A stretch of DNA of 64,000 nucleotides from a virus (IMGVR_UViG_3300037010_002464); one strand, 5' to 3'; positions 23,401 to 40,654 are shown, counted from the first letter of the stretch. Translations and numbers: made by a program. Notes: a model not told the origin generated them from the sequence alone.

Positions 23401-24558
<1,158 letters not shown>

Positions 24559-26790: not shown

Positions 26791-27001
26791 TTTCTCTACA
26801 GTAGACATCATTCTCGCCGCTTACCTGAAGGTTAAGGGCTACAAGCTGCAGAACATCGTGCGCAATGGCAATCGGGGCACATTTGTCTTTGAGGTTGTGC
26901 CTGCTATGATTCTTGAAGAGTATGACTTAGGCAACGCGCTGATCGAACCAAAAGCTCTCAACGGCGAGATCAGGTCACTGACCACAGCAACGCGTCGCTA
27001 A
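26780..27001 (+). CDS. Small conserved phage protein (DUF5659-like)
   Basis: TVDIILAAYLKVKGYKL...GNRGTFVF pattern. Confidence 0.55.
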   Translation: MQNNFSTVDIILAAYLKVKGYKLQNIVRNGNRGTFVFEVVPAMILEEYDLGNALIEPKALNGEIRSLTTATRR

Positions 27002-27639
27002 TGTACGTCGACTACCGCTCGTTAGAGCCGTACGGCGCGAACTTCGTGCCACAGTTCCACCCACCTGTGATTACCGCCGTCACCCTCGACGGCGAGTTTT
27101 GCCAGCGCGTGATTGCAAGCTTGAGCAACCCTCAAGCTTCGGGCGTGTATGACAGTGAAGTGACGCTTCACAAGCAGGTGGTTGACACCTACCATCGGTC
27201 CTCAAAAGCCATGCAGCTTGAGCCTGAGCTTTATGCCCAGGTCGCTCAGCGCATGACAGCGGCTGTCACCCATCACACGACCGCGCTGCTTGGTAAGCCG
27301 GCGTTCCTCTCAGAGCCTCTTCAGTTCTTGTCATACGCTGACGTTGACAAAGGGCACTTTCTCGCTCATACAGACAACGCATACTACGACGCAAAAGGCG
27401 TCTTCAGGTACACCTCGCCGCATCGGCAGCTGACCTGCATCATGTACCTCAATGAGGACTATGAAGGCGGCGACCTAGTGCTGCATTCGGTGCATCACAG
27501 CGATGGCTCGATTGTCAAGCTGCACCCTGCTACGGGAGGCATGGTCCTCTTCCCATCCGACATCCGCTTCCTGCATGAGGTCACGCCCTTGACTAAGGGT
27601 AAGCGCTACTCCGTAGTCGGTTGGTTCAGCGTTAAATAA
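27001..27639 (+). CDS. 2OG-Fe(II) oxygenase, prolyl-4-hydroxylase-like
   Basis: HTD, YLNEDYEGG, HEVTP, GKRYSVVGW: intact HxD...H triad and the 2OG-binding Arg. Confidence 0.9.
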   Translation: MYVDYRSLEPYGANFVPQFHPPVITAVTLDGEFCQRVIASLSNPQASGVYDSEVTLHKQVVDTYHRSSKAMQLEPELYAQVAQRMTAAVTHHTTALLGKPAFLSEPLQFLSYADVDKGHFLAHTDNAYYDAKGVFRYTSPHRQLTCIMYLNEDYEGGDLVLHSVHHSDGSIVKLHPATGGMVLFPSDIRFLHEVTPLTKGKRYSVVGWFSVK

Positions 27640-27701: not shown

Positions 27702-29273
27702 ATGACATTCAACTACACGCTTAACTGGTCTAATGACTCGTTAAAGACTCCGTTTACGCTGCCAGCAGGCAGCATTGATACCTCATCCACGTCCTTAGCC
27801 TTGACAGGCAAAGCAGCGCCGAACTGGGGTGAGCGCGTGCAGGAGAACCTGATCAGGCTGCTTGAGCACTTTGCCAGCTCAAGCGCTCCGCCGCACCCGA
27901 CCACCGGTCAGCTTTGGTACAACAGCACTGACAATCAGATGCTGCTCTACACAATCAGCGGCAACTGGGTTGTAGTGTGGCCTCACCCGACAGCCGGTCC
28001 GTCGCCGTCGCCATCGCCTACCCCGACTCCGGGCCCATCGCCTACGCCTACCCCGACTCCAGGCCCGTCGCCGGCCATCATCTTCTCTGGTGCTTCGTTC
28101 GCGCCGTCGAGCGTTACCACCGGCTCTAGCTCGACCCTGACCCTGACCTTCACGTCTGCGGTTGACCAGTCAGTCACGACCGGCATCACGCTCAACAACA
28201 CAACGGGCGGCTTAACCGGAACGTTTGGTGGTTCGGTCTCGCAATCACTGATCATCTCGAGCGGTGTCGGCCACATCACGTACACAATTGGCAGCTCAGC
28301 AGCGGGCGTCAAGACCGTGCAGGCCGTTGTCAATAGCGGCACCAACATGACCGTGGGCGCAACCCAATCGGCCAACATCACAGTCAACGCTCCGGCGCCT
28401 AGCCCAACGCCGACACCGACGCCTACCCCGTCTCCAAGCCCACCAGGCAAGGGCACGCCAACGCCGACTCCGTCGCCAGGAACTCCAGTTCCAAGCCCGG
28501 CACCTACGTTGACAGGCTTCACGGCTATGTCTGCTACGCCGACTTCGACCACGCTTGGCACAAACGTGGTCTTCCACCTGACCTTCACGGGCACGCCGAA
28601 CGCTACGAGCTTGCCTGTCAACGTCAACCTGGCTCCTGGCTCTGGCTTGAGCGGTCCGTCAGGCATTACAGCTACTACGGTCTCGATGAACTCGAGCGGC
28701 GTTGGCGTTGTAGACTTCACGTACGCGACAACAGGAACTGGCACGCTGACGCTTAACGCGCTCTCGCTCCTGCAACCACGGTCAGCGAGCGTTAGCGTGT
28801 CTGGCGTTCCGGGCGGCGTGGTCCACATCAATGCCTACTACCAAAGCACGTTCTACGGCGAAGCTGCTAGGATCAGCTTGGCATCGGGTGTTAACACTGT
28901 CAATATCCAAAACCTCTACACAGGTGACACCGTCACGCTCGCTCCTAACGGAACCGTGCATTTCGGTACTGACGGTGGCATTGCATATGACTACGATCCA
29001 GGCACGGGCAACAACTCGATTCCGGTACATGCAGATGCATCCGTAACGGGTCACCTGTATCCGATCAGCTACTCAGGTCGCGCTAACATCATCACGGCAA
29101 CGATGAATTCAGCAGGAACTATCACCATGTACTTCTACATGTGCGGTAACGCTCACGACTTTGCCGTTACTAACGGCAATGATCATCACGCATGGACCAC
29201 GGCTACTATCACCTCTACCATGTACAACCAGGGTATCGACGGTTACGTCAACGGTTCTGGCTCGTTTGAGTAA
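27702..29273 (+). CDS. Virion fibre/appendage, paralog of 10782-12671
   Basis: Same ~95-aa N-terminal anchor; long PS/PT tracts; Ig-like modules; different C-terminal tip. Confidence 0.8.
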   Translation: MTFNYTLNWSNDSLKTPFTLPAGSIDTSSTSLALTGKAAPNWGERVQENLIRLLEHFASSSAPPHPTTGQLWYNSTDNQMLLYTISGNWVVVWPHPTAGPSPSPSPTPTPGPSPTPTPTPGPSPAIIFSGASFAPSSVTTGSSSTLTLTFTSAVDQSVTTGITLNNTTGGLTGTFGGSVSQSLIISSGVGHITYTIGSSAAGVKTVQAVVNSGTNMTVGATQSANITVNAPAPSPTPTPTPTPSPSPPGKGTPTPTPSPGTPVPSPAPTLTGFTAMSATPTSTTLGTNVVFHLTFTGTPNATSLPVNVNLAPGSGLSGPSGITATTVSMNSSGVGVVDFTYATTGTGTLTLNALSLLQPRSASVSVSGVPGGVVHINAYYQSTFYGEAARISLASGVNTVNIQNLYTGDTVTLAPNGTVHFGTDGGIAYDYDPGTGNNSIPVHADASVTGHLYPISYSGRANIITATMNSAGTITMYFYMCGNAHDFAVTNGNDHHAWTTATITSTMYNQGIDGYVNGSGSFE

Positions 29274-29280
29274 ACAAGAT

Positions 29281-29302
29281 GGGCCGAATTCGGCCCCTCT
29301 TT
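29281..29302 (+). terminator. Hairpin GGGCCG-AATT-CGGCCC with a short pyrimidine tail
   Basis: Perfect palindrome 29281-96 after the fibre stop; weak U-tract. Confidence 0.45.
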
Positions 29303-29315
29303 CATCACATAGCAT

Positions 29316-30023
29316 ATGATCATCAAATTGAAGCCTCAGTGGCTCTTGAAAAGCACAGGTGTCGGCGAGGCTTTGCTCGTAAGCGAAAACGTCAAGCATG
29401 TTGAGCCGCTTGACAGGCAAAAGTTCCTCGACCGCTTGGTAGTCGGCATTGACGTTACTGACCTCGACGATGACGAGATGGAGCTGCTCGAAGCGTACAA
29501 CGCTCGAGGCTTTCTTGCCTTTGACCCACATCCGAGCATGGCAGGCTGGGAGCTCCACGGGGCCGCCTGGGCCGACGTGCAAGAACAGCTCAAGCACGTC
29601 ACGTACAATTTCATCGACCTGACTAAGAACAGCGTCGGTCAGCTGGTAGCTGACGGCCTCGAAGAGAACGGGATGTATCCGGCTGATGACGCCAAGCTTA
29701 CGTTGGTCTTCGCTGACTCTTACCTTGACCTCCCTGACATGCCGGGCAAGACGTATCTGCCGGTCATCTGCAATCGTATGAGGCTCTGGCTTGGCCCAAT
29801 GTGCTTTCCCTGGACGAAACTAAACGTACGCACATTCGTTCGTCTCAACGAGAGCTACCTTGACACGGCTAACTACAGCCTGCCGCTGGCGTTTCACAAC
29901 TTGCAGGTAGCCTGGCTCATTACAGCTTTGCTCCAGCTGGTAGCCCTCAACCACAGTCGATACGTGGGGAGCTTTGTTGAGCTAAATATGCTCAAGATGA
30001 AGACCGTCATTCACCCATTCTAA
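29316..30023 (+). CDS. TOMM cyclodehydratase docking (RRE + ThiF/E1-like) homolog, degenerate
   Basis: KLKPQW..GEALLVSE, GWELHG, LTLVFADSYL, LWLGPM.FP, ELNMLKMKTVIHP follow the order of TOMM leader-binding proteins; no CxxC. Confidence 0.6.
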   Translation: MIIKLKPQWLLKSTGVGEALLVSENVKHVEPLDRQKFLDRLVVGIDVTDLDDDEMELLEAYNARGFLAFDPHPSMAGWELHGAAWADVQEQLKHVTYNFIDLTKNSVGQLVADGLEENGMYPADDAKLTLVFADSYLDLPDMPGKTYLPVICNRMRLWLGPMCFPWTKLNVRTFVRLNESYLDTANYSLPLAFHNLQVAWLITALLQLVALNHSRYVGSFVELNMLKMKTVIHPF

Positions 30024-30026
30024 GCT

Positions 30027-30461
30027 ATGTACGAAGCCAAAACCCTCACTCGTCTTGACCATCGCCGAATCCAACGGTACCTGATGCAGCATGATCCACT
30101 GCTCGCGACGCACACTCAGCTGACACAGTACTTCCTGACCCCGACCGACACGACCGGCATCTATGAGGTTACCGACACAGGGACTGACATGACTGTAGCC
30201 GCGGCGCTCTATACGATCATGCATGAGAAGGGCGGAGCCTACATTCATCACTGGTTCGGCAGCATCGCGCACCTTGACCTGGTCGCTGACAAGCTCGCTC
30301 TGCCCACGCAAATCTTCTTGAAGGAAGGCGTTGAGCCGCCGGCGGGTTGGACTCACGTGCTGTCTGTTACCCCTGGCATGATGATTGACCACCCTGTCTA
30401 CCGCACGGTCTTCTCTCGTGTCGCCCCTCGGTTCAACGGAGCGGTCTACACACGTGCTTAG
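30027..30461 (+). CDS. Hypothetical protein, possibly a degenerate GNAT fold
   Basis: Packed in the operon; pattern only weakly GNAT-like. Confidence 0.4.
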   Translation: MYEAKTLTRLDHRRIQRYLMQHDPLLATHTQLTQYFLTPTDTTGIYEVTDTGTDMTVAAALYTIMHEKGGAYIHHWFGSIAHLDLVADKLALPTQIFLKEGVEPPAGWTHVLSVTPGMMIDHPVYRTVFSRVAPRFNGAVYTRA

Positions 30462-30972
30462 ACAGCTGCTACCTTCTGACTGGCGAGCCATGCGTAAGCT
30501 GCGCGCCACTAAGACAACTCACGCCGGCGCTGCGGTGACCGCAATCACGACAGCTCCACTGCTCAGCGTGCACGCCCGTTACCAGCATGCACCGCACTAC
30601 GCTGTAGGCAAGTTTGACGGTGACCGGTTGACAGCCTTCATCTGCGCCTACGCGCACGTTGACTTCTGGGTGCTCGACTTGATGGTCTCTGACGGTGACC
30701 CCAAAGAGCTAAGAGAGTGCTTGTCGGAGTGCTTGAAATTTTATGAATCTTTAAACGTCACGAAGTTCTACTACGCTTTCCCTGCGAAGTGGGCACGAGC
30801 CTACCGGTCCTTCTGGCGAGACGGCACGGAGGACTTGCGCAAGTACACCATCGAGGACGTATGCGCGGTCGAGCCGTACAAGAAGGTAGCTGACCCGATC
30901 CTCTGGGAGCATGTCATGCATGAGACTGTGCTTGCCATCCCGCTGCTAATCCGCCGTTCCTATGTCGCCTAA
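30454..30972 (+). CDS. GNAT-like acyltransferase
   Basis: Start GTG 30454 MLRQLLPSD; AVGKFDGDRLTAFI; CLKFYESLNVTKFY. Confidence 0.5.
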   Translation: MLRQLLPSDWRAMRKLRATKTTHAGAAVTAITTAPLLSVHARYQHAPHYAVGKFDGDRLTAFICAYAHVDFWVLDLMVSDGDPKELRECLSECLKFYESLNVTKFYYAFPAKWARAYRSFWRDGTEDLRKYTIEDVCAVEPYKKVADPILWEHVMHETVLAIPLLIRRSYVA

Positions 30973-31759
30973 TCCGCACGTCACTAGGATACACCTACCC
31001 GCGCACGCTGTAGGCCTTGCCGGTCTATTTTATGCCGTTCATAGCATGTCTTGGGGACTTCTCGCTTCCTTCTTGGCCCTCAATCTGTGGTTCTCAGGCT
31101 TAGGCGTGAGCGTCGGGTTTCACCGATACTTCACGCATCGAGCGTTTACCACGAACGCGTTCTGGCGCTATGTCATGCTTATCGGCGGCTCGCTGGCGGG
31201 CCAAGGCTCTGTCATCTTCTGGGTCGCTTTACATCGGTTGCATCACCCAAACTCAGACAAGCTACCTGACATCCACACGCCGACAAAAGGGTTCTGGCAC
31301 GCATACATGGGCTGGATCTTCTCGATCAAGCCTACTGACGTGTCCATGTCGCTTGCGAGCGACCTAATCAAAGACAAGTGGTGCAAACTTGCACATCGCC
31401 GGTACACGACCTTGCTGTGGAGCTGGTGGGCTTTGCTCGCCATCCTAGCCTGTTTCGAACCGACTCGTGCTATTGCAGCGGGAGCCGCTATCGCGGGGAT
31501 GATAAGTATCCATCAAGAGGCGATCATCAACAGCTTCTGTCATGACAGGCGATTCGGCAAGGCTGACCACCTGACCAAGGACAATAGCCGGAACATTCGG
31601 TGGCTTGCGTGGCTGACTTGGGGGCAAACCCTCCACAACACCCACCACGCCTTTCCAGGCTCCGCTAACTTTGCTGTTGACACGCCTCAAGCTTGTGACC
31701 CAGGCTACCATCTCATAAAGCATATCAGCCATGACATCACGCATCTACAAAGGGTATGA
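30962..31759 (+). CDS. Membrane fatty-acid desaturase (delta-9-like)
   Basis: Three His boxes HRYFTH, HRLHH, HNTHH; hydrophobic segments. Confidence 0.92.
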   Translation: MSPNPHVTRIHLPAHAVGLAGLFYAVHSMSWGLLASFLALNLWFSGLGVSVGFHRYFTHRAFTTNAFWRYVMLIGGSLAGQGSVIFWVALHRLHHPNSDKLPDIHTPTKGFWHAYMGWIFSIKPTDVSMSLASDLIKDKWCKLAHRRYTTLLWSWWALLAILACFEPTRAIAAGAAIAGMISIHQEAIINSFCHDRRFGKADHLTKDNSRNIRWLAWLTWGQTLHNTHHAFPGSANFAVDTPQACDPGYHLIKHISHDITHLQRV

Positions 31760-32651
31760 CGGCGTAGCCGACATTCCGCGCACCAACAATGAGCAGTGCT
31801 ACCAGGTCTGGTTCGAGCGCCCGACTCGCCCGCCGATGTCGTTGAGACAAGAGTCCTTGGCCGCAGCGAAGGACCTCGCTGCTACATATCCTGACAAGGA
31901 GCTGATGGTCCTCTTCAGCGGCGGCCTTGACAGCGAGTGGATCTGTGAGAGCCTGTGGACCGCTGGAGTCAAGTTTACGCCGACGATCATGAATAACGGC
32001 GCAAACAATCATGACCTCTACTGGGCTAGGCGTTGGTGCGCTCGTCGGGACGTCACGCCGTATGAGCACTTCTTCGACCTCAAGAGCTGGTACGGCAGCG
32101 ACGAGCAGTTCGAGATTGCGGCCAACTGTCAAACCACCGAGCTCGCTTACACCGGGCAGCTGAAGATGATGCTGGACCTGAACTCGCCTGACCGCGTGTT
32201 CATCCATTGCTATGACGAGCCAGGCCTGGTCGCTGATGACAGCGGTCCCGAGCGCGTGTGGAACCTGTACTACAGCGAGCGCCACTATTCAGTGACCAAG
32301 TTCCTGACCTATTACGGCATTAACTCGAAGCCGAACGGGTGGATCGACACAAACCTGACCAATGCCTTCATCAGGACGCCGACCATGCAGCTCCTGGTGG
32401 CTAACATGTGGCGGCCGCAGATCTGGAGCTCAGAGATGCTCAAGGTCAAGTACTATCAAGGGGCGTTCCCGACGCTCGAAGCTCGGCAAAAGTATACTGG
32501 CTTTGAAAACATGCTTGACGTAGTCGTGCCGATCAATCAGCGTTGGAAAATGCTATGTCAAGAGCGGTACGGTACAATCTGGATGGATGACTTCTCTCGC
32601 CCGATCAAGGAGGTCTGGGCGGAGCTAGAGAACATAGAGGTAGCAGAATGA
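31731..32651 (+). CDS. N-type ATP pyrophosphatase (Asn-synthetase/AANH-like)
   Basis: PP-loop LFSGGLDSE; C-terminal RQKYTGFE; no glutaminase domain. Confidence 0.7.
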   Translation: MTSRIYKGYDGVADIPRTNNEQCYQVWFERPTRPPMSLRQESLAAAKDLAATYPDKELMVLFSGGLDSEWICESLWTAGVKFTPTIMNNGANNHDLYWARRWCARRDVTPYEHFFDLKSWYGSDEQFEIAANCQTTELAYTGQLKMMLDLNSPDRVFIHCYDEPGLVADDSGPERVWNLYYSERHYSVTKFLTYYGINSKPNGWIDTNLTNAFIRTPTMQLLVANMWRPQIWSSEMLKVKYYQGAFPTLEARQKYTGFENMLDVVVPINQRWKMLCQERYGTIWMDDFSRPIKEVWAELENIEVAE

Positions 32652-33433
32652 GGGATATGCTTACGAGCTCGCACTTTTGGAAAGTTTGGCTGCCGCCTCA
32701 CGTGATTGCGGTAGCCTTGCTGTGGCGCTATGGCTTGCCAGCGTCAACTTTGCTTATGACGTTCGGCTTCTACTGCTTGATTAGCGGCTTGGGTGTAGCT
32801 GTCGGCTTGCACCGCTTCTTCTCACATCGGTCGTTCAAGACCAGCAAGGCGTGGGAGCAGGCGATGCTGTTCTTCGGCTTGCTTGCTTGTCATGGCCATG
32901 CGCTGTTCTGGGTTGCGCTCCATCGGGGCGTCCATCACCGCTACTCCGACACCGAGAAGGACCTCCACTCGCCGCACGCTCATAGCCTGTGGACCGCGTA
33001 CCAAGGCTATGCCTTTGACAAGGACATCGTCAACAAGGTCTCGTTGCGTTCAGGCATTGACTTCCTCCGTGAGCCTACATGGCAGTGGCAGGTGACCTAC
33101 TACCACTCAGTTCTCTGGGGCACGTGGGCCTTCTTCGCCCTGCTTTGGCTCATCGCTTCGCCGGTCCCGTTATTGGCTTTGACGCTCGCTCAGGTCTGGG
33201 CTATCCACCAAGAGGCCGCTGTCAATGTGCTCGGTCACACGGGCGGCATCGGCACGTACCGTAACTATCAGACCAAGGACTTCTCGGTCAACCGCCCGCT
33301 GTTAAGCCTCATCACTTGGGGGCAAGCCTTGCACAACAACCATCACGGCGACGCCAGCAATCCTGACTTCGGCACGAAGCGGTGGTATGAGTTTGACCCA
33401 TCAATGCTGTGGATCCGAGCAATTCGACAATGA
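32648..33433 (+). CDS. Second membrane fatty-acid desaturase
   Basis: HRFFSH, HRGVHH, HNNHH boxes. Confidence 0.92.
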   Translation: MRDMLTSSHFWKVWLPPHVIAVALLWRYGLPASTLLMTFGFYCLISGLGVAVGLHRFFSHRSFKTSKAWEQAMLFFGLLACHGHALFWVALHRGVHHRYSDTEKDLHSPHAHSLWTAYQGYAFDKDIVNKVSLRSGIDFLREPTWQWQVTYYHSVLWGTWAFFALLWLIASPVPLLALTLAQVWAIHQEAAVNVLGHTGGIGTYRNYQTKDFSVNRPLLSLITWGQALHNNHHGDASNPDFGTKRWYEFDPSMLWIRAIRQ

Positions 33434-34284
33434 CCGACCTCTACCTCCTGAACCCAGAAGCTGTTAAGCGAGAGTTTGACGAGATCGGAGCTGTTTGGCC
33501 GCTGCGCGTCTTCACGGATGAGCAGGTTGCGGTCTACCGTCAGCACCTGCTTGCTGAGATCTCTGACCGCAATTTGATGGCCTCCGACTACCGCTGCAAG
33601 AGCCAGGTGCTCTTCCCGTGGATGGCTGAGATTGTCAAGTCAGCGGCGATTAGGCACTATGTCGGGGCGGTGCTGGGCGATGACTTCCACTGCTGGGACA
33701 CCCTGTTCTGGGTCAAGGAGCCCAATGACGGCAAGATCGTGTCCTACCACCAAGACGCAACCTACTGGAACTTCGCGCCGAAGGATGCGGTCACGGTCTG
33801 GCTGGCGTTCAACGACGTGACCTGCGAGAGCGGCGCGATCAGGTACCGGCTACGCTCGCACAAGGATAAGAAGCAGCTTGAGCACCATGACGTGCGGAGC
33901 GAGTCGAACCTCCTGATGCGCGGTCAGACGGCTGTTGAGCCTGAGACTGGCAAGCGCCCGCGGCGCCTCATGTCAGCGGAGGTGCCAGCAGGCCACATTA
34001 CGATGCATTCGCCTTACATAGTTCATGGCTCGTCGTCGAACACAAGCTCAGAGCCGCGCCTGGCGTGCGGTATGATCTTCGCCGCGGGCCATGTTAAGCC
34101 GATTGCTAACTTCGCACCCGAGTCGACATTGTGGGTGCAGGGTGAGGACCGTCACGGGCACTTCATCCATGACCCTGTACCGACGGGTGACTGGGACACC
34201 GACCGTGGAAGCTGGCAGGCGGCTTATGATAGGCAGCACGTCAACTACTACAAGATGTCTCCTCATGATAGCCCTTCTCCATGA
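33430..34284 (+). CDS. PhyH-family 2OG-Fe(II) dioxygenase
   Basis: FWVKEP..VSYHQDATYW, TVWLAF, HGS..N.S..PR; start reassigned to ATG 33430. Confidence 0.9.
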   Translation: MTDLYLLNPEAVKREFDEIGAVWPLRVFTDEQVAVYRQHLLAEISDRNLMASDYRCKSQVLFPWMAEIVKSAAIRHYVGAVLGDDFHCWDTLFWVKEPNDGKIVSYHQDATYWNFAPKDAVTVWLAFNDVTCESGAIRYRLRSHKDKKQLEHHDVRSESNLLMRGQTAVEPETGKRPRRLMSAEVPAGHITMHSPYIVHGSSSNTSSEPRLACGMIFAAGHVKPIANFAPESTLWVQGEDRHGHFIHDPVPTGDWDTDRGSWQAAYDRQHVNYYKMSPHDSPSP

Positions 34285-34795
34285 CACGCTCTTCGGCCGC
34301 TGGCAAGACCAAGCTGTGAACATCGAGCTGGAGCTGCCTGACGGCTTGCACTTCATGCGTGCGCGCACGTTTGGCTTGAAGGGAAGACTGGGTGGACAGC
34401 ATTCATATGTGGCTTATGTGCGAAACGGCGTGCATACAGTCTTTGAAGTAAGCAGCGCTGAGACGCTAGACTACCAAGAGGTCTCATTTAGGTCATACAT
34501 TCGGCGGCCAGTCGCACCTCTTGAGCAGGTAGTGCTCGCCTCTGACAGGCATGCCGGCCAACGCTGGTTTGGCCACAAGCCTAGGCTGCTGGCTACCGTA
34601 CGCGACGCGGCGCTGTTAGACGTGCTCGACGTAGTCAATGACTACCCAAAGGTAACTACGGGGTTTCACCTCTTTGCCAACAACTGCAACACCTTTGTTT
34701 CGTGGGTTGCATACAACTTTAACGTTAAGCTGCCGTGGACGCCAGGCAGCAAGCGTCACAGCTACTGGAAGAAGCATGCAATACAGCAAGGATAA
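34265..34795 (+). CDS. Permuted papain-like (PPPDE/LRAT/DUF3750-like) enzyme
   Basis: His motif QHSYVAY precedes Cys motif FANNCNTFVSW; start ATG 34265. Confidence 0.65.
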   Translation: MIALLHDTLFGRWQDQAVNIELELPDGLHFMRARTFGLKGRLGGQHSYVAYVRNGVHTVFEVSSAETLDYQEVSFRSYIRRPVAPLEQVVLASDRHAGQRWFGHKPRLLATVRDAALLDVLDVVNDYPKVTTGFHLFANNCNTFVSWVAYNFNVKLPWTPGSKRHSYWKKHAIQQG

Positions 34796-35759
34796 CCACT
34801 ACAAGTGGGGGTGGAATGGCCAGTGGCACAATGACCCAATCGTCGACGGTAAGTTCGCCGTTGAGGTAGCGGGTGTCACTCGTGAGGTCAGGTCGTTTCG
34901 CGAAGAGTGCGGTAACACCGTAGAGGACCTTGCTAACCAATTCACCAAGCCTATTCGTGTGGGCTTGAGCGGCGGCGGGGACTCGCAAGCGGTTTGCCTC
35001 TCGCTTCTGGACCGCAAGATTCTGTTTGAGCCGGTCATCATGCACATACGGGGTCCGAAGGGTGGGATCCGTAACGAGCATGACATCAAGCAAGCATTTG
35101 AGTTCTGTCGAAAGTTTGACCTCAAGCCATTGCTGATTGACCTAGACCTGCAAAAGTTCTATGACGGGCGAGGCCAACAGCTTGCCGCTGAGCACTGCTT
35201 GACCAATGCTCGAGTGCTAGCCCAGCTTTACTTGATCGAGCTATTCAAGGACACCCACGCCTTCATCATGGCTGGCGGCGACATGGTCCTGTCAAAGGGT
35301 TCGAGCTTAGAAGGTGACCCGATTGTTACCTCCTTCGGCCCTACGCCGATTCAACAGCACCTGATCAAGTACGGGATCGAGGGCTGCACGAAGTTCTTCA
35401 TGTACTCGCCTGAATTGATCCTCTCTTACCTTGACCACCCGGCTGTCAAGGGTTTGCGGTTGGCTCATCAAGCTGTCTACTCGTCATTTGACTCGATCAA
35501 GCCTGGCATCGCCCAATCATGGACCTGCTTTAGCTACTTCATCAAGCCATGCATGTATGTCGAGCAGTTCCCTGAGCTGGTGCAAGCGATGAAATATACA
35601 GGCTTTGAGAACGCTAATGACCTGGTGTCAGAGGGGCAAGCCTTGATGAACATCGTGACGCGTCAGTTCAAGCCGCTAGACCAGAAGATCATCGTGACGC
35701 TCGAGACCTTCATCGAAGGCCTTAAGAGCGGCGAGGCAAGGCTCTATGCAGCTCCTTAA
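34776..35759 (+). CDS. Second N-type ATP pyrophosphatase (AANH-like)
   Basis: GLSGGGDSQ PP-loop, FFMYSPEL, KYTGFE; start ATG 34776. Confidence 0.7.
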   Translation: MQYSKDNHYKWGWNGQWHNDPIVDGKFAVEVAGVTREVRSFREECGNTVEDLANQFTKPIRVGLSGGGDSQAVCLSLLDRKILFEPVIMHIRGPKGGIRNEHDIKQAFEFCRKFDLKPLLIDLDLQKFYDGRGQQLAAEHCLTNARVLAQLYLIELFKDTHAFIMAGGDMVLSKGSSLEGDPIVTSFGPTPIQQHLIKYGIEGCTKFFMYSPELILSYLDHPAVKGLRLAHQAVYSSFDSIKPGIAQSWTCFSYFIKPCMYVEQFPELVQAMKYTGFENANDLVSEGQALMNIVTRQFKPLDQKIIVTLETFIEGLKSGEARLYAAP

Positions 35760-36168
35760 AGTTGTCAGCGAGGACTCGCTTGCGCATTCGAAGGCCTTCG
35801 TCTTCGTGCTCGAGGAGTACCTCGCTCTCGTCAAGGCAGGCCACGCAGACTATGACTTGCCGTTCACGAACGGTTCTCTGGTAGCCTATGCGCTGTTGGG
35901 TGACCAGGTGATCGGCGCGTCGGTCTGGAGCTATGACCCTCCTAAGCGTGCGGCGTGGGTGCTGTTCTCTGCGGTGGCTGAAGAGCACCGCAAACAAGGC
36001 ATCTACAAGCAGCTCATCCACTTCGTTGAGCAGCAAGCAATTCGCAAGGGTGCGGCAGCGCTCTACTCAGGCGTGCATGTCACCAATGACGCCATGATCG
36101 CGGCGGCTCAAGCCAGCGGCAGAACCCTAGGCTGGTATCGTACAAAGAAGCCGCTTTCAGCTAAATAG
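35746..36168 (+). CDS. GNAT acetyltransferase
   Basis: Motif A VAEEHRKQGIYKQL; motif B VHVTNDAM. Confidence 0.88.
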   Translation: MQLLKVVSEDSLAHSKAFVFVLEEYLALVKAGHADYDLPFTNGSLVAYALLGDQVIGASVWSYDPPKRAAWVLFSAVAEEHRKQGIYKQLIHFVEQQAIRKGAAALYSGVHVTNDAMIAAAQASGRTLGWYRTKKPLSAK

Positions 36169-36172: not shown

Positions 36173-36532
36173 ATGGATATCACACCTTACACCAATCAAA
36201 TCGCCTTCATTGCCTGTGGCATGTTTGGCGGCTTCGCCCACTATCTGAAGAAGTACCTACGCAAGGAGACCGACGTCGGCTTGTTTGACTGGTACGGCAA
36301 GGAAAACCTGGCAGCTACCCTTTACACGGTCATCGTCTTCCTCTTCGCGATGATCGGAGCCCTTGCAGGCGACATCGTCAACGCTGACATGAGCTTCTGG
36401 GCAACCCTGTACACAGGCTTTGTTACAGGCTTCGCAATCGATGCTGGCTTCAACTCGGACGCTAAGATCTCTGACGAGATCAAGGGTGCTCGTGAAGAGT
36501 CCCGCGCTGCCACGAAGAAGGACGGCGAGTAA
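36173..36532 (+). CDS. Putative holin
   Basis: Three hydrophobic helices, charged C-terminal tail, directly upstream of the spanins. Confidence 0.65.
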   Translation: MDITPYTNQIAFIACGMFGGFAHYLKKYLRKETDVGLFDWYGKENLAATLYTVIVFLFAMIGALAGDIVNADMSFWATLYTGFVTGFAIDAGFNSDAKISDEIKGAREESRAATKKDGE

Positions 36533-39896: not shown

Positions 39897-40526
39897 TCAG
39901 ACCACGTCGTTGAACCAACTTCTGAAGTCGCCTGGGAAGTTAGCCGGGTTGTAAAGCCAAAGGCCTTGCGAGTGCACGTAGAACTTTGCGAGCTGCAGCT
40001 CGCCGACGAGCACTGAGGTCGTGGCTTGGATGAACCGCTCGCAAGAGGGGAAGATGACAAGCGTGCCAGCCTGAGGCTGGAAGCTAAAGTTATAGACGGG
40101 GAACTCAAGCTTCCCGCCGTAGACGTGCTGCTTGAGGTTGAAGGGAGGGGTGTCCTGGTAGTCTTTCAACCAGATGATGCAGGAGAGGTCACGGCCTGAA
40201 ACTCGTGCCCACTTCTTCCGCTTGTAAACCGCGTTGTCACAGTGCGGGGCTTCTGCCAGCTTCGCATTTGAGGTCGGAAACTGCTGGAACTGAATGGTCT
40301 CGGTGGCCTTGTGCTTGATGTCGTAGTGCTCTTCGATGAGCGGAATCAGCGGCTTGAACTTGTTGTAGATCAGGTCCTCCGACGCCTTATGGGCACGAGC
40401 CATAGGTAGAGGCCGCCCTTCTGAGTCCTTGTCTGGCTCGACGACTCGTGTTTGGTCGGCGATACGTGCTACTTCTTCAGGTGTGAGGAAGCCTTGCTGG
40501 ATGATGAAAGGCGAACGATATGTCAT
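39897..40526 (-). CDS. 2OG-Fe(II) oxygenase-like protein with altered metal site
   Basis: PHCD, RDLSCIIWL, GGKLEFP, GTLVIFPS; FIQAT where the distal His is expected; minus-strand TAAATAGC at 40532-39. Confidence 0.75.
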   Translation of the reverse strand: MTYRSPFIIQQGFLTPEEVARIADQTRVVEPDKDSEGRPLPMARAHKASEDLIYNKFKPLIPLIEEHYDIKHKATETIQFQQFPTSNAKLAEAPHCDNAVYKRKKWARVSGRDLSCIIWLKDYQDTPPFNLKQHVYGGKLEFPVYNFSFQPQAGTLVIFPSCERFIQATTSVLVGELQLAKFYVHSQGLWLYNPANFPGDFRSWFNDVV

Positions 40527-40654
40527 ATGAGGCTATTTAGGATTGCGGAGGAATCTGTGCAAAACTGAGTTGTCGCTACATGTCCTTTGCATGTCCCAAC
40601 GCAGCATCACATGTGTGAATAGCGATCTCCTTACTATGATCCTTTGTATAGAAG

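Follow-up and report, generated by a model that had tools for sequence, protein, structure and literature searches.

The closest described counterparts of the locus reported here belong to the biosynthesis of ribosomally synthesized and post-translationally modified peptides (RiPPs). The locus is an operon of ten genes (g1-g10, positions 29316-36168) in a 64,000-nucleotide (nt) stretch of viral DNA (IMGVR_UViG_3300037010_002464; hereafter the window), which comes from the genome of an uncultured jumbo phage of the T4-like type, ~200 kb in size. In the cyanobactin heterocyclases LynD and TruD, and in McbB, the 'C' protein of thiazole/oxazole-modified microcin (TOMM) systems, an N-terminal winged-helix RiPP recognition element (RRE) is followed by an E1-like docking domain that has no working ATP loop, and a YcaO partner is present, either fused or separate. 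MccB of microcin C7 and PaaA of pantocin A share the RRE and E1 folds but are active adenylating enzymes with a nucleotide loop; the E1-like enzyme of pantocin is also paired with a 2-oxoglutarate (2OG) oxygenase. The lasso-peptide proteins B1, B2 and C bring together an RRE, a Cys-protease-type fold and an ATP pyrophosphatase of the Asn-synthetase superfamily. Finally, in the GNAT-lipidated RiPPs, such as selidamides and goadvionins, a GNAT-fold enzyme places a fatty acyl group on a ribosomal peptide, and the clusters contain short precursors and fatty acid synthase/polyketide synthase or acyl-acyl carrier protein (acyl-ACP) supply genes.

On the phage side, the general type of gene island is already known: the host recognition cluster (HRC) is a variable island in the tail-fiber region of pelagi- and cyanomyophages (PMC7029224), and its enzyme genes, as well as those for viral fatty acid desaturases (vFADs), have been read in the literature as lipopolysaccharide (LPS) or membrane auxiliary genes (PMC7029224, PMC5776448). 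The operon is likewise a variable, enzyme-rich block within the tail-fiber region of a T4-like phage, its content varies between relatives, and desaturase, AspH and radical SAM genes occur in both settings, the HRC and vFAD islands being those of aquatic T4-like phages. In the literature searched, we found no description of an RRE protein in a phage, or of a core combining a prolyl hydroxylase-like (P4H) oxygenase, an RRE protein, a PP-loop enzyme, GNATs and a desaturase. Here, we show that such a core is conserved in several phage lineages. Our best reading, which we hold tentatively, is RRE-guided hydroxylation and amide-linked acylation of Pro-rich segments of a phage fiber.

Linkage of the operon across phage genomes

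Ten plus-strand open reading frames (ORFs) fill the operon (Table 1). With the best-supported starts, the successive junctions from g1 to g10 measured +3, -8, -11, -29, -4, -4, -20, -20 and -14 nt, so that genes overlapped at eight of nine junctions. This agrees with the first-pass annotation, made from the sequence alone, which had described ten co-oriented and nearly all overlapping genes; its domain calls were also each reproduced or supported at a weaker level. Comparison of the operon DNA with 50,697 phage records gave no match at either near or distant similarity. Genes identical to those of the window were found on contigs of up to ~201 kb, and the sole GenBank phage match was Ralstonia phage RsoM2USA, weak and at the protein level.

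The core, in the order P4H, g1, PP-loop, g2, g3 and desaturase, was syntenic in six phage lineages (the window with L001-L003; L004, L005 and L007, on contigs of ~200 kb; L008; L009; and L091), and L006 had a partial version. The nearest distinct relative (L001, 85% identical) kept all ten genes and added an AspH gene, whereas L006 had a rearranged set (g2, g5, P4H, g8, g9, g7, g10). In the more distant phages, the core was followed by differing hydroxylases, radical SAM enzymes, a carbamoyltransferase and short-chain dehydrogenases/reductases. P4H lay immediately upstream of g1 in L004, L007, L009 and L091, and in the window clade the fiber gene sits exactly between the two. Therefore, the unit starts at position 27001; the ten genes first proposed are indeed a linked set, but the unit is larger and includes P4H and the fiber gene. 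Co-occurrence of the genes in other genomes, whose absence had been set beforehand as the observation that would speak against the proposal, was thus found, with the order shuffled, and the proposal was not refuted.

In addition, members of the PP-loop family to which g5 and g9 belong were fused with GNAT (P0031, P0036, P0111), AspH (P0127) and methyltransferase (P0139) domains, which ties these activities to one pathway. Taken together, the translational coupling, the shuffled synteny and the fusions strongly favor a shared pathway over a fortuitous assembly of genes.

The PP-loop family had 432 representatives in a library of 1.8 billion proteins. In IMG/VR, 206 stretches encoded the family, and 80 loci were kept; 89 loci were analyzed in all. 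Neighbors within 10 kb of the PP-loop gene included the g4-type desaturase (69 of 89 loci), the g3-type GNAT (53), AspH (49) and radical SAM (34). Two loci from cultured organisms deserve mention. A region of Bradyrhizobium denitrificans LMG 8443 (L103:1851-16424) has two g5-family PP-loop paralogs beside a prolyl oligopeptidase, together with a 192-aa protein with a Cys/Gly/Ser-rich tail, a GT4 glycosyltransferase, a glutamine-synthetase-like ligase, a cupin/AspH gene and an HlyD/AcrB exporter. This region of a cultured strain has the appearance of an uncharacterized cluster for a peptide natural product. The cultured Pelagibacter phage Mosig (L089; MT647606, 50735-69283) carries AspH, desaturase, TauD, GNAT, radical SAM and carbamoyltransferase genes by its tail-fiber genes, and no match to g1, g2, g3, g5, g7, g8, g10 or P4H was found in the 18.5 kb examined. 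Among the phages compared here, it is the closest cultured system with such an island.

The RRE and E1-like protein g1

The first gene encodes a protein whose predicted structure joins an RRE to an E1-like domain. The AlphaFold2 (AF2) model, built from a six-sequence alignment, had a pLDDT of 64 overall and was good over residues 1-70 (pLDDT 71-87) and 100-150. In Foldseek searches, the best match was the N-terminal part of LynD/TruD (E 3e-9), followed by MccB (E 5e-6), McbB, PaaA (E 1e-3), ThcOx and isolated RREs. VIA comparison gave Z 9.7-10.4 to LynD/TruD over 202-214 of 235 residues (LynD, Z 10.4 over 214 residues; TruD, Z 9.8), and Z 7.5, 6.4 and 5.7 to MccB, PaaA and McbB, respectively. 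When the N-terminal ~75-79 residues were compared with the RREs of ThcOx, TigE, TbiB1, lasso B1, PbtF and PqqD, Z values were 5.9-7.7, of which 6.5-7.7 belonged to ThcOx, TbiB1, lasso B1 (7.0) and PbtF, at a root-mean-square deviation of 2.2-3.2 Å; the model has the winged helix, three-stranded sheet and three helices of the RRE fold. The C-terminal half matched UBA5, MoeB and other E1 enzymes at Z 5.4-6.8. The fold thus bears out the TOMM/RRE-like scaffold suggested at first. Since this architecture is that of RiPP leader-binding proteins, a peptide substrate is indicated.

The GxGxxG loop of active E1-like enzymes (MccB, PaaA, ThiF/MoeB) was not found in g1 or in seven homologs; D-L-T-x-N-x-V-G stands at the nucleotide-loop position and is conserved in those homologs. 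Because of this replacement, we read g1 as a peptide-binding adaptor rather than an enzyme, and it is probably non-catalytic. In this respect g1 differs from MccB and PaaA, and adenylation by the separate PP-loop proteins appears more likely than by g1 itself. It also differs from LynD, TruD and McbB in its partners: no YcaO was detected among the ten operon proteins or ten large ORFs of the window outside the operon, nor in the 177-kb record of the relative L009, where controls were detected. In contrast with TOMM clusters, the neighbors of g1 are PP-loop, GNAT, P4H and desaturase genes. The operon has no intergenic room and no small ORF for a precursor peptide; the earlier statement that it lacks both a precursor and a YcaO was upheld.

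Single-sequence PDB searches with g1 gave chance matches only, an IMG/VR scan with g1 alone gave no match, and the g1 alignment, whose patterns were too narrow, likewise retrieved nothing from viral, genome or metagenome collections. When 33 of the most frequent ORF families in the 89 loci were compared by hhalign with g1, g2 and g8, no distant relatives of these three were found. A predicted complex of g1 and g5 scored 0.00, which counts neither for nor against binding.

Pro-rich repeats and the candidate substrate

The fiber-like protein encoded between P4H and g1 was assigned from weak N-terminal matches to virion structural PHROGs and from its position. Its internal [ST]P-rich linkers lie at residues ~105-130 and 236-275, and the second contains a lone Lys and a GTPV unit. 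In L004, L005 and L007, the second gene upstream of P4H encodes a Phage_tail_fib protein with C-terminal G[ST]PV units, one Lys among them, and in L009 two small upstream proteins have long C-terminal (GTP(P)V)n tails. Such Pro-rich repeats occurred upstream in all three g1 lineages for which upstream DNA was available; among the 89 PP-loop loci they were confined to g1-bearing ones and were present in none of the 80 loci without g1. The association involves few independent lineages, and the distribution of P4H is the same as that of g1. This co-occurrence is the strongest evidence for a protein target, and it lends comparative support to the initial idea that the adjacent fiber, a candidate acceptor, is the substrate.

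Two observations concern the same region. In L003, one of the Logan assemblies of this phage, the fiber gene (L003:1610-3181) was split during gene calling at the Pro-rich repeats, which left a C-terminal piece of 195 aa and an ORF on the opposite strand. The split could be an artefact of assembly or gene calling, or the repeat could truly vary there. The sister lineages also share a conserved protein of ~199 aa, encoded in every case between the genes for the Pro-tailed proteins and P4H (L004:8034-8633, L007:8744-9343, L009:5847-6443); it has no homolog in the window and might act as a chaperone or as an additional component of the pathway.

Enzymes of the operon and its upstream extension

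Hydroxylation and desaturation are represented by four proteins. P4H, which was absent from the original ten-gene set, matched Pfam PF13640 (2OG-FeII_Oxy_3; on an identical gene) and PHROG 61 (E 4e-25). P4H-family enzymes hydroxylate peptidyl proline. The PhyH call for g7 was confirmed at 75 bits against a cut-off of 22, and its H-Q-D motif, in place of HxA/G, indicates a hydroxylase rather than a halogenase. Both g4 and g6 exceeded the cut-off of Pfam FA_desaturase, and g6 matched the stearoyl-CoA desaturase (SCD) SCD1 in PDB (E 1e-6). The three His boxes of g4 are HRYFTH, HRLHH and HNTHH; those of g6 include the canonical HRFFSH and HNNHH, and its second, H-R-G-V-H-H, is one residue longer than HxxHH. 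These features agree with the two putative desaturases predicted earlier.

Two further proteins, g5 and g9, are paralogs (BLASTP E 2e-12) that share the SGGxDS PP-loop, located in an N-terminal HUP-type nucleotide-binding domain as in the PP-loop superfamily, and a KYTGFE motif. In the family alignment, S-G-G was invariant in 52 sequences, and the family profile matched NAD synthetase in PDB (E 2e-5), as well as TilS, GMP synthase and QueC; members matched Pfam NAD_synthase, Asn_synthase and QueC, the second only weakly and in seven of 52. The motif and the NAD synthetase match are consistent with the ATP pyrophosphatases that had been proposed. Single-sequence PDB searches with g5 and g9 gave chance matches only, and g5 had no match in an IMG/VR scan on its own or in tblastn against the 50,697 phage records.

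The three GNAT calls stood on different grounds. For g10, Pfam identified a GNAT whose acyl-CoA pyrophosphate-binding motif is near-canonical (R-K-Q-G-I-Y, with Tyr in the final G/A position). For g3, a member of the widely conserved triad, a profile matched PDB GNATs (E 6e-7), the AF2 model had a pLDDT of 88, and the top Foldseek match was RimI (E 2e-7); because only generic GNATs were retrieved, acetyl, fatty-acyl and aminoacyl donors are not told apart. For g2, which was kept in all lineages including L006, the weaker assignment came from an ESM Atlas model alone (TM-score 0.62-0.68 to GNATs). The R/Q-x-x-G-x-G/A motif was absent, by eye, from both g2 and g3.

The papain-like Cys enzyme proposed for g8 was supported at a weaker level: its match to DUF3750 (PF12570), a family classed as papain-like (PMC10318531), reached 24.4 bits, just under the cut-off of 25, and His46 and the Cys of NCNTF were invariant in four homologs. 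Its profile had no match in PDB, and it appears to be an accessory member, being present in only two lineages. The lasso-peptide logic invoked in the first-pass annotation was rejected: lasso cyclases have ~500-600 aa with an N-terminal domain, whereas g5 and g9 (306 and 327 aa) consist of the PP-loop domain only and had no Pfam Asn_synthase match; B2 is transglutaminase-like, whereas g8 is DUF3750-like and missing from most lineages; and no precursor peptide was found.

Table 1. Features of the operon and its surroundings in the window
Feature	Position	Strand	Basis or remark
HNH/NUMOD3-type homing endonuclease, 215 aa	26143-26790	+	Between fiber-module genes and DUF5659/P4H genes
DUF5659 protein, 73 aa	26780-27001		
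P4H-like 2OG-Fe(II) oxygenase (2OG-FeII_Oxy_3)	27001-27639	+	Core cassette member
Fiber-like virion protein with internal [ST]P-rich linkers	27702-29273	+	Candidate substrate; sequence, position
Hairpin, 6-bp G+C, T-rich tail	29281-29296	+	Between fiber gene and g1
g1, RRE (winged-helix) and E1-like domain, no GxGxxG ATP loop	29316-30023	+	AF2, Foldseek, VIA
CTAAATA box	29982-29988	+	Within 3' end of g1, 38 nt ahead of g2
g2, GNAT-fold, no canonical CoA-binding motif	30027-30461	+	ESM Atlas model
g3, GNAT-fold, GTG start at 30454, no canonical CoA-binding motif	30454-30972	+	Profile, AF2
g4, membrane di-iron desaturase, SCD (delta-9) type	30962-31759	+	Pfam PF00487, His boxes
g5, PP-loop ATP pyrophosphatase, distinct ~300-aa family	31731-32651	+	SGGLDS; 306 aa
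g6, second SCD-type desaturase, 35% identical to g4	32648-33433	+	Pfam PF00487, His boxes
g7, PhyH-family Fe(II)/2OG hydroxylase, HxD motif	33430-34284	+	Pfam E 1e-20
g8, DUF3750-like papain-type Cys/His enzyme, accessory member	34265-34795	+	Pfam, invariant H46/Cys
g9, second PP-loop ATP pyrophosphatase, g5 paralog	34776-35759	+	SGGGDS, KYTGFE; 327 aa
g10, near-canonical GNAT acyltransferase	35746-36168	+	Pfam PF00583 E 3e-10
CTAAATA, further copy	36161-36167	+	Ahead of gene after operon
CTAAATA, all positions	911, 6726, 29982, 36161, 61803	+	
CTAAATA, all positions	37674, 40540	-	

Genomic context of the operon

Upstream of the operon are genes for a baseplate spike (Phage_base_V), a 2843-aa protein, a collagen-like protein and fiber-like proteins; downstream are a small membrane protein, a GH108 endolysin on the opposite strand and then replication genes. 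These neighbors place the operon at the end of the tail-fiber region. The 'holin' ORF (36173-36532) has a hydrophobic segment, is near the GH108 endolysin and had no PHROG match, so the label is positional. Two ORFs upstream of the operon were considered as precursor peptides, and neither qualifies: the 73-aa ORF is the DUF5659 protein and the 215-aa ORF the HNH/NUMOD3 endonuclease. In the same tail region, the 385-aa collagen-like protein (23401-24558, plus strand) consists mostly of G-P-T/G-x-y triplets and is another possible client of P4H-like enzymes.

The TAAATA noted earlier at 29983 is present. It belongs to a motif, CTAAATA, that has seven copies in the window where 2.0 would be expected, and most copies precede a start codon by 5-12 nt. 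The canonical T4 late promoter, TATAAATA, was not found in the window, and CTAAATA may be the late promoter or a translation-start signal of this lineage. The P4H profile also found a second P4H-like 2OG oxygenase gene (39897-40526, minus strand), which has a CTAAATA copy (40534-40540) 8 nt upstream of its start.

Possible substrates and rival explanations

On the preferred reading, modification of the fiber, the operon would be a late, translationally coupled pathway acting on a ribosomally made polypeptide, whose likeliest target would be the Pro-rich segments of the fiber encoded between P4H and g1. The g1 adaptor would bind the target segment and recruit the enzymes, and P4H and g7 would hydroxylate it. 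The PP-loop proteins g5 and g9 could activate a carboxyl or carbonyl group by adenylation and use it for amide-bond formation, g2, g3 and g10 could transfer acyl groups, for example onto the lone Lys of the linker, and the membrane desaturases g4 and g6 would tailor the fatty acyl chain; g8 might serve in trimming of the product or in acyl shuttling. The net product would be a hydroxylated and amide-acylated (lipidated) fiber. Each chemical step, and the acceptor, we infer from the observed folds, motifs, linkage and co-occurrence of Pro-rich repeats. The chemistry proposed is that of the GNAT-lipidated RiPPs, which differ in that the candidate acceptor here is a virion protein and acyl tailoring would be carried out by membrane desaturases. 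This reading unites both sets of evidence: an acyl group would first be tailored and next be joined to a protein or peptide through an amide bond. This core idea of the first-pass annotation gained support from the linkage, the fusions, the g1 fold and the fiber association, whereas its lasso logic did not hold and the gene unit it named was incomplete. A more doubtful variant is a YcaO-independent, RRE-guided system by which the phage would decorate its own host-binding fiber, yielding either hydroxylated Pro-rich [ST]P/GTPV segments with an amide-linked desaturated acyl group, or segments cyclodehydrated by a PP-loop enzyme in the place of YcaO, with a di-iron desaturase as oxidase. In both cases, enzymes of the natural-product type would give rise to a virion with altered chemistry.

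Several points weigh against modification of the fiber. The g1 gene was present in only nine of the 89 PP-loop loci, and of the 80 IMG/VR loci only L009 carries it, the PP-loop/GNAT/desaturase/AspH set being far more widespread; in Bdellovibrionota contigs this set lies beside FA_hydroxylase and FA_desaturase genes with no fiber nearby. The g1 model reached no more than moderate confidence (pLDDT 64 overall), and g2 and g3, which appear to lack the CoA-binding motif, may use another donor or have a non-catalytic role. Pro-rich linkers are commonplace in fibers, and those of the window fiber are internal, whereas those of the sister lineages are C-terminal. SCD-type desaturases act on lipids, and cyanophage vFADs are proven delta-9 desaturases of C16 lipids (PMC5776448). 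The main rival is remodeling of host envelope lipids, which we regard as possible but less probable. In that case, the products of the PP-loop, GNAT, desaturase and hydroxylase genes would make or alter a membrane lipid of the infected cell that contains an amide linkage, for instance an N-acyl amino-acid lipid or a polyamine lipid, or else the acyl chains of lipid A, and g1 and P4H would serve the fiber separately. The neighbor counts fit this idea (desaturases in 69, g3-type GNATs in 53 and AspH in 49 of the 89 loci versus nine for g1), as do the SCD1 match of g6 and two bacterial loci: L106 of Bdellovibrionota has FA_hydroxylase, PP-loop, AspH, desaturase, FA_desaturase and radical SAM genes and adjoins groEL/groES-like ORFs (named by eye from sequence), and L100 has a PP-loop gene beside a GNAT and a saccharopine-dehydrogenase-like gene. 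The AspH-family enzymes LpxO and OlsC hydroxylate lipid acyl chains, which also counts in its favor. However, in this clade g1 and P4H are integral to the cassette and keep their place in its gene order, to our knowledge the RRE has no role in lipid metabolism, and neither an acyl carrier protein, an acyl-ACP synthetase nor a lipid-type acyltransferase was found in the operon. Host lipid, named at the outset as an alternative substrate, is thus a serious rival given the g1-less loci and the Bdellovibrionota context, but ranks below the fiber.

The remaining explanations are less probable still. A free RiPP-like peptide or small molecule, made late and released at lysis, with its precursor encoded elsewhere or cleaved from a larger protein by g8, would agree with the RRE-E1 fold of g1, the adjoining lysis genes and the peptide-flavored context in B. 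denitrificans (prolyl oligopeptidase, Cys-rich tail, ligase and exporter); we consider it unlikely, because no small ORF, exporter or immunity gene was found in or beside the operon, the small upstream ORFs have other identities, and the link with virion tail proteins recurs from lineage to lineage. Even less likely is that the region is a hypervariable island in which unrelated auxiliary genes are transcribed together without sharing a substrate. The region does fit the variable HRC, in which fibers are mixed with many enzyme genes (PMC7029224), the non-core gene content varies among lineages, and Mosig has a desaturase/AspH/TauD/GNAT island but no match to g1, g2, g3, g5, g7, g8, g10 or P4H in the part examined. 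Nevertheless, the fusion of family members, the conservation of core order in six lineages and the start/stop overlaps at eight of nine junctions argue against such an unrelated assortment.

Significance for phage biology

If the fiber is the target, RiPP-style chemistry, that is, a recognition element with tailoring enzymes, would act on a virion structural protein. Host-range determination and the arms races between aquatic T4-like phages and their hosts would thereby gain a new layer. The system would also represent a new partnership, in which an RRE-E1 adaptor works with PP-loop adenylating enzymes in place of YcaO. If lipids are the target, the viral desaturase auxiliary genes would be extended to a multi-step pathway for amide-lipid remodeling. 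Either way, the cassette is a conserved one in hundreds of uncultured phage contigs.

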